From: Acidobacteriota bacterium
GTDB lineage: Bacteria; Acidobacteriota; Thermoanaerobaculia; Gp7-AA8
Reading direction: 5' to 3'
NCBI GenBank assembly: GCA_019244185.1
Contig: JAFATB010000016.1
Span: 1-31,109, forward strand
DNA length: 31,109 nt
The first letter of the stretch is position 1, and every line of letters begins with the position of its first letter. Of the stretch, positions 1 to 18,021 are shown one piece after another. The notes beneath the pieces were generated by a model, which was given only the letters and a program-made list of their open reading frames with translations, did no database searches and was not told the DNA's origin. The position numbers were made by a program, and so were the translations under genes.

Positions 1-67
1 ACGACAAGATCATGTCAGGCGAGAGGTCGAACGGGTCCAGGACCGGCAGTTCCTGCTCTTCAGTCAT
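1..67 (-). CDS. 5' end of a gene running off the left edge (MTEEQELPVLDPFDLSPDMILS...), product unknown
   Basis: ATG at 67 on the minus strand preceded by GAAAGGA (SD-like) and a sigma70-like promoter; frame open to the window edge; too short to identify. Confidence 0.6.
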   Translation of the reverse strand, partial: MTEEQELPVLDPFDLSPDMILS

Positions 68-88
68 AGCAGTTATCCTTTCCCGCGC

Positions 89-118
89 AGTTTGGCAGCA
101 CGGCGGTAAAGAAGTCAA
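89..118 (-). promoter_or_regulatory. Putative sigma70 promoter for the leftward gene
   Basis: Minus strand TTGACT-N18-CAAACT with TGn extended -10, about 20 nt upstream of the ATG at 67. Confidence 0.5.
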
Positions 119-165
119 CAAGCCACAAATCGTGGCAGGCGGCGGCCGGCCAAGTGGCGACCGGC

Positions 166-239
166 GGCTAACTCTGGTGTCAAGCCGCCAGCGGGCTGCC
201 GTCCGGCCCGGCGGCCGAGCCGCCTAGGGTCCGTTGGCT
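166..239 (+). repeat. attC-like site, internally deleted (family B left arm joined to R')
   Basis: GGCTAACTCTGGTGTCAAGCCGCCAGCGGGCTG...GCCGAGCCGCCT joins directly to AGGGTCCGTTGGCT; the L' arm (GCTTACACC) is missing relative to 3152-3336. Confidence 0.7.
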
Positions 240-253
240 CCTCACTGGTTCTG

Positions 254-547
254 ATGGAACGCGGCATGATGGTTGAGCGCTGGAAGAAACCACTCGAGCG
301 GATGCGTTACGAGTTCGGTCTCTCCGGCACGTGGACTCTAAACGATCTTTCCGACCGTGCGGAAGATGTTCCGCGCACCTCGCGTCTCTACAAAGTTTCC
401 GTGGGGTACCTGTCCGACCCAGCCGCCGGCTTCAAGGTGCTGACGTCTTTCGAAGATGGACGAACCGGTCCCTTGTTGCAGAAAGTCCGTCAATACTTCG
501 TCGGCATTGCGATTAGCCGCTTCTCCGGTCGCGGCGTACTGCCGTGA
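254..547 (+). CDS. Cassette 1 hypothetical protein (97 aa, possibly frameshifted near the 3' end)
   Basis: Starts 20 nt after the GTT core, as expected for a cassette ORF; no recognisable motif; another frame stays open to about 635. Confidence 0.45.
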   Translation: MERGMMVERWKKPLERMRYEFGLSGTWTLNDLSDRAEDVPRTSRLYKVSVGYLSDPAAGFKVLTSFEDGRTGPLLQKVRQYFVGIAISRFSGRGVLP

Positions 548-660
548 TCTCGAAATGGGTGTGCCGGTTGAGCGAGGGCACACCCCAACGGTGCCGATCT
601 CAAATGTCGCAGCTTCATTAGGCGATCGACAGTGAGAATCAGCCCTAACTCGACATCGCC

Positions 661-854
661 GGCTAACTTTGGTGTGAAGCTGGTGCGGCCCGGCTTCGGC
701 CCGGCAGCCGAGCTGCCTGCGTCGCCAGCGTGACGACGTCACGCCAGTTGCAGAACGCGACTCGGTTCTTCGAACGTCATGCGCGGCAACTGGCGCGCCG
801 CTGCGGCTTCGGCACGCGGGACCGGCCGCACAGCTTACACCAAGGACGTTAGAC
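661..854 (+). repeat. attC site, family A (194 bp)
   Basis: GGCTAAC-TTTGGTGT(G)AAGCTG(G)TGCGGCC ... GGCCGCACAGCTTACACC-AAGGAC-GTTAGAC. Confidence 0.92.
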
Positions 855-928
855 CGGCCGAAAGCCCGGTGCGGAGCGACGGGTCCTACCTGTTGCCGAC
901 GGTGCGGAATGCGTGATTTACTGCCACT

Positions 929-1759
929 ATGGCCGATCTCATCACGACATTCCGAACACTATCGCCGAGTATCGTTGCGTTCGGGTCGAAATTTGCCCGC
1001 TCGAAGGGAGGGCAAGCGCCGCCATTCCCTGAAATCATCGGGACGGGCTTTGTGATCGACGAGCGTGGCATCGTCGTAACGAACCGACACGTCGCCGAGG
1101 CACTTCTCGCATTGCCGTCTGCGCCCAACACCAGTGAGCCAGCGGCCTTCGCTCTGGTTTACGGCGGCGTCTACGAAGAGAACGGTGGGCACGCTTTAAA
1201 CGCAGCACCCGTCGACATCATCCACTACCAAATGATCGGCGCGTTCAAAGCCGAAAAGGAGTGGTACGGCGATCCGCTGCCCGACGCGGCATTTTTGCAA
1301 CTGAAGGTCCGCGGCCTGAAACCGGTGACCCTCGCAACTGACCACTGGTCTTGGGAGGTGGGCACACCCGTAGCTACCGCTGGTTTCGCGATCGGCGCTC
1401 AGGCCATGGTGATCTACGGCAACATCAATCAAATGACACCGATACTCCGCCAGGGAGTGATCGCAAGCGTATTTCCATTCCCTTGTCCCACACCGCACGG
1501 GTTCACCATCGACATCATGACTCTCGGTGGGGAGAGTGGCTCACCGATCTTCCGTCAGGACCGTCCGGAAGTTGTCGGACTGCTGCATGCCGGATTCGAT
1601 AACACGAACATCACGCTCGCACTGCCATCGCTGTTTGTAGCGGAGGCGTACAAGGCTATTTCCGCACAGAACCTATTCGAATTTAGCAGCGATGTGCCCA
1701 CACTAGATGCGCTCTTCGAGGGCGAGGGCTCGAGCGGTCCGGAATGGACGGCGGTCTAA
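929..1759 (+). CDS. Cassette 2 trypsin-like (S1 family) serine protease, no signal peptide
   Basis: GTGFVI..VVTNRHV (His), PDAAFL (Asp), GESGSPIF (Ser) triad motifs; stop codon TAA lies inside the R'' GTCTAAC. Confidence 0.9.
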   Translation: MADLITTFRTLSPSIVAFGSKFARSKGGQAPPFPEIIGTGFVIDERGIVVTNRHVAEALLALPSAPNTSEPAAFALVYGGVYEENGGHALNAAPVDIIHYQMIGAFKAEKEWYGDPLPDAAFLQLKVRGLKPVTLATDHWSWEVGTPVATAGFAIGAQAMVIYGNINQMTPILRQGVIASVFPFPCPTPHGFTIDIMTLGGESGSPIFRQDRPEVVGLLHAGFDNTNITLALPSLFVAEAYKAISAQNLFEFSSDVPTLDALFEGEGSSGPEWTAV

Positions 1760-1928
1760 CTTTGGTGTGAAGCTGGCACGGCCCGGCTGCCGAGCCGCCT
1801 CGCGCGCGGCAAGCGTGACGGCGTCACGCCGCCTGCAGCCGCGTCAAAGTCAAAGGCGGCAAGCGGCGTGCCGCTCTGGCTTCGGCACGCGGGGACCGCC
1901 CGTGCAGCTTACACCAAGGACGTTAGGC
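1754..1928 (+). repeat. attC site, family A (175 bp)
   Basis: GTCTAAC-TTTGGTGT(G)AAGCTG(G)CACGG ... CCGTGCAGCTTACACC-AAGGAC-GTTAGGC. Confidence 0.92.
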
Positions 1929-2410
1929 CGACGAGCCATACTTCCCGTGGCAACGCCTTTCCATGACGCTCCGCGTACTTGCACCGCAACGCGCAGAACC
2001 AGCTACGCAGGCACCCTTGGGCAGAATGGCGCAGGCTGTAGGCCAACAAATCGCCATTCCGAGCGATCTGCGCGGGAATCGCGGCAGTGAACGAACTGCA
2101 ACACGTCAGGTGATGCGGTAAGCTGACTAGGTGAGCTCCTTGTGCGATCCGCGAAAGGCATGGACGAACGTCGGAAGTACGGCGAGTCTTCCGAGGAGAC
2201 CTGCTCCGTCCTCGTCGACCGCATCGCGCGTATCCACGACGACCCGGATCATTCGTTCGGACGAGATCCGGTGAGATCGTCGCGGGGCATCGAGTGGTGG
2301 TCGGTTACTGGTGGTCTCTTTCACGGAACTAGGCGAGTTCGTTCGTATTATCAACGCTCGGTGCGCGGACCAGATGACCGTGAGAGCCGTTGGGCTGACG
2401 GAGGTGGATA

Positions 2411-2881
2411 ATGCAGGCAGCGTCGCGCGGCATTTTGATTGTCAGCAGCATCTTTGCCTCGTTGGTCTCGTTCGCCGCACCATCAACATACGTCGCGACT
2501 CGTGCGGCCGCTGTGAAGCAGGCCACCCTCGTCCTCGCCGAGCTCGAGCCGATCGCGCGAGAGAATCCGAGCCACTACCCGGATAAATCGACTCAGCAGA
2601 AAATCGGTCAACTCATGGCCGGGCTCAAGGATCTGCACGCGCTATCGGTTTTCGCGAAGCTCGCCGCCGCCGTCCAGAGTGGTTTGGCAGAGCATCAAAG
2701 CTACGACTCGGTGTTCGAACATGCGGAATGGCTCGCCATTGAGAGAGTTGCATCCATTCCAGGCGAAGAGGCCCGATTCGAGCTTGAAAATGTCCTCAAA
2801 CCGACTCTTGGAGCCGACGGGCATCCGGCAGAGCTATTCTCCGAGCTACTCGCGAAGCAGCGAGCTCTCAAGCCGCGCTAA
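2411..2881 (+). CDS. Cassette 3 secreted hypothetical protein (156 aa)
   Basis: GGAGGT SD; N-terminal signal-peptide-like stretch (RGILIVSSIFASLVSFA-A); stop immediately before the degenerate attC. Confidence 0.75.
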   Translation: MQAASRGILIVSSIFASLVSFAAPSTYVATRAAAVKQATLVLAELEPIARENPSHYPDKSTQQKIGQLMAGLKDLHALSVFAKLAAAVQSGLAEHQSYDSVFEHAEWLAIERVASIPGEEARFELENVLKPTLGADGHPAELFSELLAKQRALKPR

Positions 2882-2887
2882 CCGCAG

Positions 2888-3046
2888 CCCCAACTCACGG
2901 TGGACCTGACCACGCGCCGTTCGTTAGCCCGGCGGCCGAGTCGCCTTGGTCATCGCGACGCGGCTGGCGTCGCGCCGCTTGCATTTGCGGCATTTCAAGT
3001 GCAGCAAGCCATCCGCGGTCGCTTGGTCAATCCGCGAACGTACACG
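2888..3046 (+). repeat. Degenerate attC relic
   Basis: CCCCAAC-TCACGGTGGACC ... GGTCAATCCGCGAAC-GTACACG; retains CCCGGCGGCCGAGTCGCCT and GGCGTCGCGCCGCTTGCA shared with family A; core GTT reads GTA. Confidence 0.65.
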
Positions 3047-3151
3047 GGCAGAAGGAGACGCGATGCTGAAGAATCGTTTGAGGTTCATGTGCGACGCAAT
3101 GATCACCTCGATCGCGGTACCGCGTGGTGCAGTTGGTGAGTGAATCGCGCG

Positions 3152-3336
3152 GCCTAACTCTGGTGTGAAGCCGTCGGCGGGCTGGTCGTCCGGCCCGGCG
3201 GCCGAGCCGCCTAAATGATCGCCCACAGGAATGGCGGCACGCCAGCCGCAGGCGCCTAAATGCGTCGTCGCGCGTGCTCGGCGGCGGCTGTCCGGCCACG
3301 CGAAGCCCGCCGCGGCTTACACCAGGGACGTTAGGC
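3152..3336 (+). repeat. attC site, family B (185 bp)
   Basis: GCCTAAC-TCTGGTGT(G)AAGCCG(T)CGGCGGGCT ... AGCCCGCCGCGGCTTACACC-AGGGAC-GTTAGGC. Confidence 0.92.
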
Positions 3337-3590
3337 GGACGAATCAACATCTGAGCGCCGGCACGTTTCCTATGAGCTCAGCGTAAATGCACCCTCGGCA
3401 CTGCGAAGTGTCGGAAGAGGCCTCTCCCTTCAGAAGCCAGAATCGGAAGACGCCATCTGTCTGAAGTTGGGAAGGGGGGCGCACTGCGACGTTCGTCGGC
3501 GTCGCATTCTCCGAAGCGAGACGGTAGGGTGGACGCCGGCCGTGTTCCCACCCGGAGCCATTTTGGGCAAGCCGGGGAATCAAGTTGCAC

Positions 3591-3618
3591 TTGCAGGGCG
3601 CCGCGATCGCGCTATCAT
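3591..3618 (+). promoter_or_regulatory. Putative cassette-internal sigma70 promoter
   Basis: TTGCAG-N16-TATCAT about 135 nt upstream of the ATG at 3753. Confidence 0.4.
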
Positions 3619-3752
3619 CTTCTGATAAGCGACCATTTTCGAAGCAGTCAGTCTGGCGCTGCGTCTGCTTTTTTCCGTTAGCAGCTTAGCGCACTCCGCA
3701 GATAACCGTCCCAGTGCTGTCACGTCGAGCAGCCGACAAAGGAGAAGGCGAG

Positions 3753-3953
3753 ATGTCTGAAAACCCGTGTATTGAAGCCTCCAATGCCGCCTATCAGGCG
3801 CGTATCGGCAAGCTGTTTGACAATTTGGCAGAATGCCTAATGCTCGCGGAGCCGGATAACGATGAGGCGCGTGCGGCCTGCCAAGAACGATTCCGCCGTG
3901 GCCTTTCGGCGGCTCGTGAAGCTCGTGCAATTGCGCTTAAGGAGTGTCGCTGA
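3753..3953 (+). CDS. Cassette 4 small helical hypothetical protein (66 aa, 4 Cys)
   Basis: AAAGGAG SD upstream of ATG 3753; MSENPCIEASNAAYQARIGKLFDNLAECLMLAE... looks like amphipathic helices. Confidence 0.7.
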   Translation: MSENPCIEASNAAYQARIGKLFDNLAECLMLAEPDNDEARAACQERFRRGLSAAREARAIALKECR

Positions 3954-4211
3954 TCGCGGGTGAACCGCGCAAGTGATGACTCGCAGTGGAACTGTCACTG
4001 CCGCGCTGAGCAGTTCTTGCCGTTTGAGCGGAGCGTCTACGCCCCACCATGCCTGCATGACGAAGAGAGGGAGCCGTCCTCGGTCAGTGTCGGCTATCGT
4101 GCGTATACCGAACCAGTAACGCGTAATGTAGCAGCGCGCGTATCGTTGCCGGCTCGCCGCAACGTGGCACGGGACAGATGACTTCTGTCACCGGTGCTTC
4201 AGACGCTCGCC

Positions 4212-4409
4212 GGCTAACTCCACACTGAAGCTGGCGTGGCCCGGCTTCGGCCCGGCGGCCGAGCCGCCTCGGTCGATCACGATCGTCGCGGCGTCACGCT
4301 GGCTGCATTTCGCTCCCGCCGAAGCCTCGTTAGTCGCGGCAGCCAGCCCGCCGCTGTGACTTCGGCACGCGGGCCCTGGCCACGCAGCTTAGTGTGAGAT
4401 CCGTTAGGC
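4212..4409 (+). repeat. attC site, family A variant (198 bp)
   Basis: GGCTAAC-TCCACACT(G)AAGCTG(G)CGTGGCC ... GGCCACGCAGCTTAGTGTG-AGATCC-GTTAGGC; the L-box stem co-varies relative to the other sites. Confidence 0.92.
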
Positions 4410-4782
4410 GCACGCAGCTGTGGCGTCAACATTGTGGTGTCTTCGGCTGTGTCACCAAGGGCTCGTTCCGCCGACTCGATGGCGACACAGGTGTTTCGCG
4501 ACTTGCTACGCATCAGCATCGCTGTCCAATTCAGCTGCCGTCCGACCCGTTGTGGTTTGGTGGCAGGGAAACTCCGAAGAGGCGCTGCACAGATGACACG
4601 TTCTGCGTTGCAGCTCCTGCCGGCGTACAAAGCCACACAATGGTAGGTACGGCGAGGCGGCACGGTTCGTTCCGATCCAAGCAGTAGTCGTCAGGGGGCG
4701 CTCGTTCTGATGCCCGAAGGTATTACGCCCACATCGGCGGACGTTTGGAGTCTCGATATGAGTGACCATGTTCATGACCGCG

Positions 4783-4968
4783 GGCTAACTCTGGTGTGAA
4801 GCCGTCGGCGGGCTGGCCGTCCGGCCCGCCGGCCGAGCCGCTACATCATCTAAATATGCACGGCAGCACGCCGGCCGCAGACGCGCATATGCGTCTTCGC
4901 GCGCTCGCCGCGGCGCGGCGTTCCGCGCACCTCAAGCCCGCAGCGGCTTACACCAAGGGACGTTGTGC
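4783..4968 (+). repeat. attC site, family B (186 bp), last in the array
   Basis: GGCTAAC-TCTGGTGT(G)AAGCCG(T)CGGCGGGCT ... AGCCCGCAGCGGCTTACACC-AAGGGAC-GTTGTGC. Confidence 0.9.
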
Positions 4969-5568
4969 GGACGGCCCGTGTGCTGCGTAGACTCAGGTCG
5001 CTGCCGGTAAGTTACAGGTGCAAAGCGACTGCTGCTCCGCGTCGAAGCGAACACGTGCACGAGAGCCGCTAGTTTCGCGATCGACTGGCTGCCCGCGCTG
5101 CGCTCTTCAGTGGCCGCGCCTGAGGCTAGTTTGGGTTATCTTTACGTGTGCGTACACGACTGCCAGCCGATCGCATCGTTTCGGAGTGAACGCGTCTCCG
5201 AATCGGTGCGGCGTTCGCTACGCAGCAGCCGCCCGCGTCCGCGACGTTGTGACTGTCCGCTCAGGCTGCGGCTTCGTGTGCGTAGTTGCAGGTGTCACGC
5301 ATCGGCCGGTCGCACCGCCGTAGTCACCTCGGCCCGCACTTGAAGGCCGCGAGCGGCTGAGTGAAAGAAGGTGGGACGGACGGAACGTTGGCTTGCTATA
5401 AGACGTTTGCTGTCGGACTGATAGCGCTTTGAGTGTCAAGCCTCCCGACGAGCCGCCGGTCCATCTCAAGATGGACAAGGCGCTTTGTCCGATCGTTGTC
5501 GCCTGCAACGTGTACCTCAGCTGGAGAAGCAACGGGCGAAGGCGGTTCCGAATTGACTAACTGCTTAA

Positions 5569-6246
5569 TTAAGGTATTTCAAGAATCATTCTCAATCGCC
5601 CCAAATCCTCCTGCACGTTGAGCGCGGGGTCGTCGCCGAGGAGTTTGGAGACGCGGGCGCCGAGGCGGCCGGCGGGGGGATCGTAGCGGAGGATGACTTT
5701 GACTTCGGTGGCGTTGCGGGTGGGGGTGGGGGTGAAGTGGACGGAGCCGGCGTTGTCGACCTGGCTGCTGTCGACGGAGCGCCAGCCGATGAGCTCATTG
5801 GGGATTTCGTTGATGATCTCGGCTTCCCACGACACGGTCGTTCCGGCGGGGCCGCGCGCGGTCCAGCGGGAGCGTTTGTCGTCATGCACGTCCACCGATT
5901 CGAGGTGTTGCATGAAGCGGGGGAGGTTGGCGAAGTCGCGCCAGAACGCGTAGATGCGTTCAGGCGGGGCATTGACGATCACCGACTCTTCGACACGGAT
6001 GCCTTTGCCGTAGGGGACGCTGACGTGGCTGTCATCCTCCGCGTCGGGGACGCTGGTCACGCCGAGCGTCTGATACACCATGCAATGGCCTGTGGCGCCG
6101 CGCCAGACGAGCGCGCCGCCGGCGGCGGCGATGGCGAGGCCGCGCAGCGATCGCGACTTCAAGCCGTAGGCGGCGACGGCGCTGCCGAGGATGACGGAGA
6201 TCCAGCGTTCGGGATCGTTGACGTTGACGTTGGCTCGTTCAGTCAT
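5569..6246 (-). CDS. SRPBCC family (cyclase/dehydrase) protein with N-terminal DUF2892-like membrane segment
   Basis: NVNDPERWIS..GATGHC..Y and IYAFWRDFANLPRFMQHLESV..SRWTARGPAG..WEAEI..NAGSVHF motifs; start moved to ATG 6246. Confidence 0.9.
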   Translation of the reverse strand: MTERANVNVNDPERWISVILGSAVAAYGLKSRSLRGLAIAAAGGALVWRGATGHCMVYQTLGVTSVPDAEDDSHVSVPYGKGIRVEESVIVNAPPERIYAFWRDFANLPRFMQHLESVDVHDDKRSRWTARGPAGTTVSWEAEIINEIPNELIGWRSVDSSQVDNAGSVHFTPTPTRNATEVKVILRYDPPAGRLGARVSKLLGDDPALNVQEDLGRLRMILEIP

Positions 6247-6297
6247 GACGCCGTTCGCTGCGGCATGAAGCATGCCCGGGCGATAGAATCGGCGGCC

Positions 6298-7260
6298 ATG
6301 CCGAACGCCGCGCCGCCCGTCCGTCCCGTCACTCTCGCCGAGATCGAAGCCGCGCGCGAACGCATCCGCGGCGTGATCACGCGCACCCCGCTCGTCCGCC
6401 TGCTGCACGGCATCGACGGCGCGCCGGAAATCTGGCTGAAGCTGGAGAATCTGCAGCCGATCAACGCGTTCAAGCTGCGCGGCGCGGCGAATGCGGTCGC
6501 GCTGCTGTCCCCCGAAGAACGCAGCAAGGGCGTCTGGACGATCAGCGCGGGCAACGCGGGACAAGGCGTCGCGTACGCGGCGCGCGCCGCGGGCGTGCCG
6601 TGCAGCGTGGTCGTAATCGACAAGGCTCCGGAGACGAAGATCGAGCGGATGCGCGCGCTCGGCGCGACACTGGTCAAGGCGCCGTTCGACGCATGCTGGC
6701 GCGCGATGGACGAGCGCGCGTTCCCCGGCATGGACGGGACGTTCGTGCATCCATTCGACGATCACGATTTCGTCGCCGGCAATGCGACCGTCGCCCTCGA
6801 AATCTTCGAAGATCTTCCCAACGTAAAAACCGTCATCGCCGCGATCGGCGGCGGCGGTCTCATCGCCGGCATCGGCAGCGCCCTCCGCGCCGTCGCGCCC
6901 CAGGTCCGCGTCCTCGGCGCGGAACCGGAGACCGCCGCGCCCGGCGCCGCATCATTCGCCGCGGGCGCACCACAAGTGTTCGACGGCTGGCAGCAGTCGT
7001 TCGTCGACGGCGCCGGCGGCAAGAGCATCTTCCCGCGCATGTGGGAACGCATGAAGACGACCGTCGACGGTTCGACGATCGTGACGCTCGATGAAGTGCG
7101 CGACGCAATGCGCCTCGTCGCCTCGAAGATGCGCGTGATCGCCGAAGGCGCCGGCGCCCTCGGCGTCGCCGCCGCGCTCAAGGAATCCGACGGCCCCGTC
7201 GTCGCCGTCGTCTCCGGCGGCAACATCGACCTGCGCAAGTTCTGCGAACTGGTTGGGTGA
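6298..7260 (+). CDS. PLP-dependent threonine/serine dehydratase family protein
   Basis: KLENLQPINAFKLRGA (PLP lysine), SAGN, IGGGGL, SGGNID; no regulatory domain; TAGAAT 8 nt before ATG 6298. Confidence 0.92.
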   Translation: MPNAAPPVRPVTLAEIEAARERIRGVITRTPLVRLLHGIDGAPEIWLKLENLQPINAFKLRGAANAVALLSPEERSKGVWTISAGNAGQGVAYAARAAGVPCSVVVIDKAPETKIERMRALGATLVKAPFDACWRAMDERAFPGMDGTFVHPFDDHDFVAGNATVALEIFEDLPNVKTVIAAIGGGGLIAGIGSALRAVAPQVRVLGAEPETAAPGAASFAAGAPQVFDGWQQSFVDGAGGKSIFPRMWERMKTTVDGSTIVTLDEVRDAMRLVASKMRVIAEGAGALGVAAALKESDGPVVAVVSGGNIDLRKFCELVG

Positions 7261-7267
7261 GGCGATA

Positions 7268-7418
7268 GGGACCGACCAGAGGCCTCCGGCGGGCCGGCGC
7301 GGCCGGCTGCGCTAAGGGCCTAGCCAGCACGCACGTTCAGAGCAGCCGCACGTGCGGATAGGCTAGGCCCTAAGCGCAGCCGGCCGCGCCGGCCCGCCGG
7401 AGGCCTCTCGTCGGTCCC
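7268..7418 (+). repeat. Long intergenic inverted repeat (58-bp arms, 2 mismatches), REP/MITE-like or bidirectional terminator
   Basis: 7268-7325 is the reverse complement of 7361-7418; fills the gap between convergent genes. Confidence 0.9.
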
Positions 7419-7425
7419 CGTCGGC

Positions 7426-8010
7426 TCACCGCACCGTCGCGACCGGACGATAGCCTGGCGGGCTTGGGTAGTCGCGGCGGTCCGTGAGCTGCGCGAGGGG
7501 CGTGTTCATGATGGGCACGACGTAGCCGGCGATCTTCGCGGTCTTGCCGGTGGGCGTCGGCTTGTCGACTTCGGCGGGGAGGCGGATCTGGATCTTCGAG
7601 GGATCGAGGACCGTCGCGCCGCCCGGTTTGAGGAGCACGTCGGGGATGAAGACGTCGGCGTTGCCGGGGACGCCTTCGAGCAGGAGTTGCGCGTTCTCGG
7701 CACCGGGGGCGCTGATGCCGACGACGGCGTGTTGCGGCGGGACGTCCAGCACGATGAACGCGCCGTTTTCGGCGATGCCGCCGGACGCGTACTGCGCGTT
7801 CTCGACCCAGAGCGACGACGACTGGAACAGCTGCGTGCGGCGCGCGATCTCCGTCTCGATCGTCTCGCCGCGTTTCGCGCCGGCGACGTCGACGATCCAG
7901 CCGCGCACGCTGATCGGATCGTGACTGAGCTCGTAGATCGAGCTCGGATCTTTCTTGCCGCCGCATGCCGCGGCGACGAGCAGGAGCGCGGCGGCGAGTG
8001 TGCGTCGCAT
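7426..8010 (-). CDS. Hypothetical lipoprotein
   Basis: MRRTLAAALLLVAAAC lipobox; genome-typical codon usage. Confidence 0.85.
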   Translation of the reverse strand: MRRTLAAALLLVAAACGGKKDPSSIYELSHDPISVRGWIVDVAGAKRGETIETEIARRTQLFQSSSLWVENAQYASGGIAENGAFIVLDVPPQHAVVGISAPGAENAQLLLEGVPGNADVFIPDVLLKPGGATVLDPSKIQIRLPAEVDKPTPTGKTAKIAGYVVPIMNTPLAQLTDRRDYPSPPGYRPVATVR

Positions 8011-17906: not shown

Positions 17907-18021
17907 AGAAGAATGAATGAAGAACGCAGAACGCAGAATGAAGAATTGAGAAAAGAGACCGGTCTCGGTTTCTCAATTCTGCGTTCTGCGTTCTGCGTTC
18001 TGCGTTCTTCATTCAGCTTCT
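17907..18021. repeat. Hairpin built from heptamer tandem repeats (GAACGCA/GAATGAA versus TTCTGCG)
   Basis: Left arm gaagaacgcagaacgcagaatgaagaattgagaaa, right arm tttctcaattctgcgttctgcgttctgcgttctgcgttcttcattca. Confidence 0.85.

Follow-up and report, generated by a model that had tools for sequence, protein, structure and literature searches.

Integron attC sites are taught as hairpins of 57–141 bp whose function depends on the outer boxes alone, with no constraint on the terminal part. Four earlier studies give attC lengths of 57–141 bp, with Vibrio sites of 120–129 bp that carry a "complex branched" variable terminal structure (VTS) (PMC5371416), a VTS size of 20–100 nt (PMC4889954), Treponema sites of 63–68 bp with "long" ones of 115–132 bp behind an intI co-oriented with the cassettes (PMC3607928), and an attC model built for Acidobacteria (PMC8352920). 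Here we analyze a contig of 31,109 nucleotides from an Acidobacteriota bacterium (hereafter the window, which is the entire contig C9 of genome G000; 5,304,552 bases, 26 contigs, 66–68% G+C), near whose start lies a run of attC sites measuring 175–198 nt. We conclude that this is a genuine integron array whose attC sites are a long, conserved and lineage-wide variant and, judging from sequence comparison, we put at about 90% the probability that, at window positions 1–5500, a sedentary chromosomal integron of an Acidobacteriota host, most likely one of the Thermoanaerobaculia, has the distal end of its cassette array.

Sequence reading of positions 1–6000 and a repeat finder located five full palindromic sites (175–198 nt) and two fragments between 166 and 4968, all on the + strand (Table 1). 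Searching the whole of G000 with a profile (nhmmer) of the long-attC family—72 distinct sense-strand members, comprising the 5 window sites and 67 from other genomes taken via stretches with the 3'-end site motif—returned 7 matches at E < 1e-3, all on the + strand of C9:167-4965 (5 full length, 2 partial), with the remaining 15 listed matches at E 0.018–8. These searches bear out the preliminary description of the sequence, which had placed five intact and two damaged sites here, given them the pattern YAAC-N8-extra base-AAG ... CTT-N11/12-GTT and divided them into two interleaved families, A and B. The sites read TAAC, 8 bases, one extra base, AAGC ... GCTT, 11–12 bases, GTT, with the 5' spacing equal to 9 and the 3' spacing to 11 or 12 in 67 of the 72 related sites, and they succeed one another as (partial B)-A-A-(partial)-B-A-B. 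The broader claims of that description hold as well. It had called the stretch an integron cassette array, for which the attC anatomy, an intI gene in the same genome and the same site family behind intI in two other genomes (G001 and G296) all argue; it had called the sites exceptionally long, and they measure 175–198 nt here and 187–201 nt in G296 vs. the published 57–141 bp. It had also supposed an acidobacterial host. The nearest relatives of the integrase (68–71% identity; from 600 candidate stretches, of which 583 were confirmed, the 80 best were retained) occur in metagenome-assembled genomes (MAGs) labelled Thermoanaerobaculia, and an exact scan of the genome collection for the 3'-end site motif found 42 stretches, 38 of them in Acidobacteriota by MAG label (28 Thermoanaerobaculia, 10 other Acidobacteriota) and 4 elsewhere.

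The geometry of the sites is that of a canonical attC. On the 5' arm, R'' (GNCTAAC) is followed by 3 unpaired bases, a 5-bp L box, an extra base, 6 bp (AAGCYG), a second extra base and further stem, and the 3' arm mirrors this order without the extra bases, with 6 unpaired bases before the terminal R' (GTTAGNC). All five full window sites begin and end with inverse core sites, R'' (...AAC) and R' (GTT...), respectively, and the AAC/GTT column pairs are kept in 70–72 of the 72 family members. L-box 5-mers are perfectly complementary in 66/71 sites, by way of four different sequence pairs. The first extra base stands at alignment column 16 in 72/72 sites and the second at column 23, 6 bp further, both on the R''-L'' arm, and the unpaired central spacer is unequal, with 3 nt on one side (TTT in 51/72) vs. 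6 nt on the other (AAGGAC in 46/72). Bottom strands of the window sites fold at -57.7 to -63.9 kcal/mol (z -2.55 to -4.63, 200 shuffles each). Across the 72 sites, the predicted probability of the fold with both R and L paired has a median of 0.75 on either strand, and the bottom strand is the more stable one in 48 (mean 1.6 kcal/mol). Four of the five full window sites reach a predicted recombinogenic fold probability of 0.6–0.8. The last full site (4783-4968) pairs its R box only at AAC/GTT since it ends in GTTGTGC, as is expected where the right half of a site derives from another partner.

By analogy with described integrons, each site would act as an ordinary attC, with a self-folding bottom strand, R box (CTAAC/GTTAG) and L box paired around an unpaired spacer, and two extra bases on the R''-L'' arm to mark the strand; the integron integrase would cut between the G and TT of R', so that cassettes could be excised as circles and re-inserted. 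The pairing of core sites along the arrays fits such a process. Among 45 neighbour pairs, the 7-mer R'' finds its full complement in 31 cases in the R' of the site before it, with which the cassette in question begins, and in 13 cases in the R' belonging to its own site; in the informative cases, where only one of the two matches holds, 21 favor the preceding site vs. 3 its own, as fits circular cassettes joined at G|TT. Together with the boundary of element X' described below, these counts are indirect evidence of strand exchange at G|TT of R', in which TTRRRY goes to the next cassette.

An intI gene, for which the preliminary description had suggested looking elsewhere in the genome, lies on the + strand at C25:87528-88466, 751 bp from the contig end, and scores 454.5 bits against TIGR02249 (cut-off 265, passed by 0 of 14 control genomes). 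Residues 7–319 of its product align with VchIntIA (PDB 2A3V; E 2.6e-93), IntI-specific insert included, and the protein is full length, with its catalytic motifs present and neither stops nor an extra domain. The gene is co-oriented with the cassettes, with attI behind its 3' end. Directly behind this attI (C25:88802-89177), and again behind the last attC of the window (4962-5322), lies a non-coding element of 361–376 nt (X and X', respectively), whose two copies are 80% identical and differ by indels of 1, 1, 11 and 2 nt. The likeness begins exactly at the G of GTTGTGC, upstream of which the two are unrelated (attI side on C25, last attC's 3' arm on C9), and a boundary at this base is the expected footprint of a G|TT exchange. 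We also considered X' as a conserved part of the integron platform, and rejected this reading since a search of 100 other family members' genomes, 15 of which belong to the genus, returned no copy; the element is also without an Rfam match.

In two related genomes, intI, attI and array are adjacent on one molecule. Contig C7 of G001 holds an intI (452.7 bits) followed on the same strand, from 1.1 kb downstream, by 4 long sites. In G296, a genome of the same genus assembled in 3 contigs, the intI at C2:2118113-2119048 is followed by 94 profile matches (2120564-2226592), including 87 full-length sites over 106 kb, 86 on the + strand and one inverted, in an array whose first match lies 1.5 kb downstream of intI. 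These 86, once cut back to their core sites, measure 187–201 nt and share 61–99% pairwise identity (median 74%). Clustering at 80% divides them into three groups that take turns along the array (85 neighbour pairs include 46 switches), so that the interleaving seen in the window requires no second cassette source, whereas at least two sources had been supposed at first; families A and B are subfamilies of one superfamily with common R, L and inner boxes. Using site A1 as query, we found matches in 23/24 other genomes of the genus and 48/96 of the family, and only weak, short matches in other families of the class (two candidates scored per genome; the unpublished genomes G180, G140 and G109 included). 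Comparing the five window sites with 80 loci around related intI genes gave one 31-nt match and one marginal match only, and a crude palindrome finder (up to 260 nt) reported 53 candidates of 59–157 nt in 25 of these 80 loci.

Table 1 Features of the array end of the window and of its immediate surroundings
Feature	Position	Strand	Basis and remarks
ORF (open reading frame) 5' end, running off the contig start	1-67	-	Sequence reading; part of the sequence upstream of the assembled array
Truncated attC, B-type 5' half (R'', L'', stem, first inner hairpin), 3' arm missing	166-235	+	nhmmer 167-227, profile positions 2-60, E 1.2e-5
Cassette ORF of 97 aa without family match	254-547	+	
attC A1, 194 nt	661-854	+	Profile, 185.9 bits; fold -62.7 kcal/mol, z -4.63
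Cassette ORF for a trypsin-like peptidase of 276 aa	929-1759	+	PF13365, E 2.8e-14; TAA stop within R'' of the next attC
attC A2, 175 nt, shortened by 14 nt in the 5' inner region and missing some of the apex	1754-1928	+	Profile, fold, alignment
Conserved leader, ~65 nt, at cassette start	1922-1990	+	Second copy at 3329-3395
Two overlapping cassette ORFs, no family match	2142-2411 (89 aa), 2411-2881 (156 aa)	+	The second ends in GCGCTAAC
Fragment of an attC with the inner region but neither L boxes nor R'	2924-3017	+	nhmmer, profile positions 36-128, E 1.3e-4
attC B1, 185 nt	3152-3336	+	Profile, fold
Cassette ORF, 79 aa, no family match	3714-3953	+	
attC A3, 198 nt	4212-4409	+	Both L-box arms altered (ACACT/AGTGT in place of GGTGT/ACACC)
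attC B2, 186 nt, last full site	4783-4968	+	R' is GTTGTGC; profile, fold
Element X', non-coding	4962-5322	+	80% identity to G000:C25:88802-89177; likeness from the G of GTT in both
Possible decayed B-type attC 5' half (weak)	5426-5491	+	Local alignment score 18 vs. 10.0 +/- 1.7 (maximum 16) in 200 shuffles
First gene outside the array (YgaP-like transmembrane and SRPBCC/polyketide cyclase domains)	5569-6765	-	G+C rises here from 58–65% to 66–72%

What sets these sites apart is their length and the conservation of their interior. Among the 72 related sites, 67 measure 186–203 nt with a mode at 197–198 (195 nt: 5; 196: 5; 197: 26; 198: 19; 199: 4) and the other five 126, 133, 144, 223 and 331 nt; total length is held near 190–200 nt across the whole genus. 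The window sites fall outside the 57–141 bp with a poorly conserved terminal structure by which attC are otherwise known. Beyond the L box, in place of a short variable loop, stands a conserved, covarying and mostly paired module of ~140 nt, made up of a 12–13 bp stem, a side hairpin (GGCNGCC-GA-GGCNGCC type) and a 10-bp central helix (CGGCGGTTGC/GCAACCGCCG). Hand-chosen helices (R box, stem, side hairpin, central helix with its extension, apical helix) are paired in 95.8% of 3195 cells, vs. only 21.8–53.9% in slid-helix controls, a comparison that favors the former as the tested helices were picked from the same sequences. Both-side changes occur in 19 of 45 pairs, with 150 such cells vs. 47.4 +/- 6.2 in shuffles (0/500 reach 150). 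Helices were chosen from a DNA-parameter consensus of 57 full-length A-type sites, with 15 rows dropped; RNAalifold on all 72 sites gave a partial consensus only. One further candidate, the local hairpin CGTGACGGCGTCACG, was rejected as a conserved helix since its 5' half varies without compensation (by eye). A coding reading of the sites was likewise rejected, as their lengths differ by 1–2 nt and frames through the conserved leader are not kept (by eye).

Long branched sites recall the Vibrio superintegron, whose Vibrio cholerae repeats (VCRs) likewise make up a homogeneous attC family specific to one lineage, have long terminal structures with branches and fill a large sedentary array in the chromosome. 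In contrast with VCRs, the sites described here are 175–201 nt in length, about 60–70 nt longer, lie in a host of different phylum and G+C, follow an intI that is co-oriented with the cassettes, and have C rather than G as first extra base on the bottom strand. Treponema chromosomal integrons likewise have intI and cassettes in the same direction and a site length that varies between species, and "long" sites are described for them too, but these reach only 115–132 bp, with common ones of 63–68 bp. Class 1 attC sites of the aadA7 type share the R''-spacer-L''...L'-spacer-R' order and likewise carry two extra bases on the R''-L'' arm at a distance of 6 bp; they are, however, mobile rather than sedentary, with a VTS down to 3 nt and a total of 56–141 bp. 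A C-then-A pattern of extra bases occurs in three sites of a Thiobacillus locus. The loci of the nearest IntI relatives (Acidobacteriota, Eisenbacteria and Blastocatellia; L012, L016, L021 and L064) resemble G001 and G296 in having arrays downstream of a co-oriented intI and the long sites in their first extra base (see below), whereas their candidate sites measure 59–157 nt and are without sequence likeness to families A or B.

The long sites exceed the attC lengths of the cited literature by about 50 nt. Where "long", "large" or "longer" attC appear for integrons in the literature searched, the terms refer to sites of at most 132 bp or to arrays, and we found none of the present length. Nor did we find attC paired with Thermoanaerobaculia there, although the supplements of PMC8352920, PMC4889954 and PMC5371416 may already contain such sites. 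A whole genus of abundant soil Acidobacteriota keeps sites of ~195 nt, with ~90 cassettes over 106 kb in one array. This widens the known size range of recombination substrates that have to fold out of duplex DNA, offers a natural test case for the effect of length and branching on folding and strand choice, and indicates that soil contains a large cassette pool with almost no annotation. IntegronFinder has a default maximum attC size of 200 nt. With sites near this limit, surveys may undercount such arrays, though this is not to be assumed.

Several observations weigh against reading window positions 1–5500 as the end of an integron cassette array. The evidence for mobility is comparative throughout. 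In G000 intI lies on C25 and the array on C9, so we infer their linkage, and the C25 tail has only 9 bases that resemble the lead-in of an attC. Of the seven sites, two are broken and the final one has a hybrid R', and part of the array may be decaying. One computed fold probability exceeded 1 (a numerical fault), which is why we report medians only. G-T vs. A-C mismatches number 48 vs. 34, a difference driven by one pair that indicates no strand of selection. Finally, the identity of the extra bases is not canonical. Studied proteobacterial attC have G and T as extra bases on the bottom strand, an identity that the long sites do not share: their first extra base is G on the top strand, hence C on the bottom strand, in 70/72 sites, and the second is G in 39, T in 16, A in 12 and C in 5 (top strand). 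The same sense-strand G occurs as first extra base in 33/51 ordinary-length sites beside related integrases, which makes it a trait of the integron clade rather than of long sites.

Some of these observations would also fit an array on C9 that is a frozen relic (a cluster of attC sites lacking an integron-integrase, CALIN), no longer recombined and slowly decaying, with the C25 intI serving another, unassembled array or none. Such a relic would account for the broken sites at 167-227 and 2924-3017, the possible third remnant at 5426-5491 (which has no match in the profile search of G000), the hybrid last R', the placement of intI on another contig and a further decayed half-site 458 bp from the end of C2. 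We nevertheless regard it as rather unlikely, given an integrase that is full length with catalytic motifs and no stops, a predicted recombinogenic fold in 4/5 full sites, and samples that hold, besides the window, contigs with other members of the site family. The C2 half-site, a decayed B-type attC 5' half at C2:416290-416345 on the - strand and one of the 15 weaker profile matches, is followed by ordinary genes, and probably marks another array end or a relic.

The distal end of a sedentary integron array remains our preferred account of the C9 sites, and contigs of runs X1–X3 add to the picture of their surroundings. Assembly would have broken inside the repeated attC sites: in these runs contigs end inside attC sites, and summed depth over attC bins is 3–25x that of unique cassette bins, a summed-contig depth that is not a copy number. 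This hints that the samples contain more members of the site family than the assembly (the best-matching run may be the source sample, and run X4 contains only a small share). A 1268-nt contig of run X1 extends 1121 nt past window position 1, covering window 1–147, at ~2x the depth of unique cassettes, which suggests a two-copy sequence that broke the assembly there. Site A3 is spanned by a single 1503-nt contig in runs X1–X3. The truncated site at 166-235 shares 91–92% identity with the 5' parts of sites 3152 and 4783. G+C is 58–65% across the array vs. 66–72% in the adjoining genes.

A second alternative concerns the interior of the sites rather than the array, and holds that an attC needs only its outer 50 nt, with the inner 140 nt kept for a role outside recombination, as an RNA that stabilizes or terminates transcript 3' ends or as a binding site for a host protein. 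Several inner boxes are at least 95% invariant across the 86 G296 sites that are otherwise 61–99% alike (median 74%), two GGCTTCGGC motifs lie on the sense strand and length is held at 187–201 nt in G296, all of which such a role could explain. On the other hand, we detected neither a terminator-like nor a promoter-like excess in window positions 1–6000 (6 vs. 5.8 expected and 0 vs. 0.9, respectively; nothing above chance) and no Rfam match at gathering score in the window or in locus L001 (0 matches), and the helices, with 94% of paired cells Watson-Crick and no clear G-T strand bias, fit a DNA palindrome as well. Sites are also homogeneous within a Vibrio lineage without such a function (PMC5371416). 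On balance we consider a role of this kind doubtful. We offer with similar reserve the suggestion that the inner 140 nt may be a conserved functional module (branched DNA or RNA), with near-invariant boxes such as CGGCGNCACG and a CCGAG hairpin, that is needed by this integron lineage itself, for instance in recruiting a host factor, timing single-strand folding or acting on cassette transcripts; if true, these would be the first attC class with sequence-specific information beyond the L box.

As to the contents of the array, unit length ranges from 559 to 2690 bp (median 1215), and the cassette ORFs of the window all read in the direction of the sites. Only the trypsin-like peptidase has a significant family match, with the other 6 of the 7 window ORFs tested having none; PADLOC returned weak matches of protease models for the peptidase (E 3.4e-7 and weaker) and a marginal one for the 156-aa ORF (E 0.008). 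The contents of the window cassettes were not found in the G296 array. Some cassettes that are otherwise unrelated share a conserved leader of ~65 nt (...GCTTTCCATGANGCTCCGCGTA...) immediately after R', with no reading frame kept: two in the window (1922-1990 and 3329-3395), the first cassettes of G001:C7 and G136:C15, and 10/86 in G296; one copy lies at positions 6063-6130 of locus L141. In the G296 array (L144–L151), 62/86 cassettes have GAC at +9 to +11 after GTT, so conservation on the R' side may extend beyond 7 bp. The same array contains ~15 near-identical short cassettes of roughly 480–500 bp that recur along its length.

The weakest alternative, that the sites are interspersed palindromes of the repetitive extragenic palindrome (REP) or miniature inverted-repeat transposable element (MITE) type that merely resemble attC and spread by other means, draws on their being long and GC-rich and on the presence of true elements of this kind in the genome, but is highly improbable, since all 7 significant matches lie in one 4.8-kb stretch on one strand, the 94 G296 matches form one array from 1.5 kb behind intI, and the complementarity of R'' to the preceding R' would be left unexplained. 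Where the preliminary description had named scattered copies and a missing link to IntI as contrary evidence, we find one array on one strand and IntI-linked homologous arrays, and a scattered REP-like repeat is excluded for G000. Two other palindromes of the window serve as positive control for scattered repeats. One, at 7251-7435 between genes, is a true REP/MITE-like element, a near-perfect palindrome of 185 nt (86-nt arms, 87% complementary) with ~200 blastn matches on 20 contigs; the other, at 17919-18003, is an 85-nt palindrome of GAACGCA heptamers with ~200 blastn matches on 16 contigs. Four weak tandem profile matches at G000:C10:107621-108071 (E 0.08–6; spacing ~126 nt) belong to an unrelated GC-rich tandem repeat.

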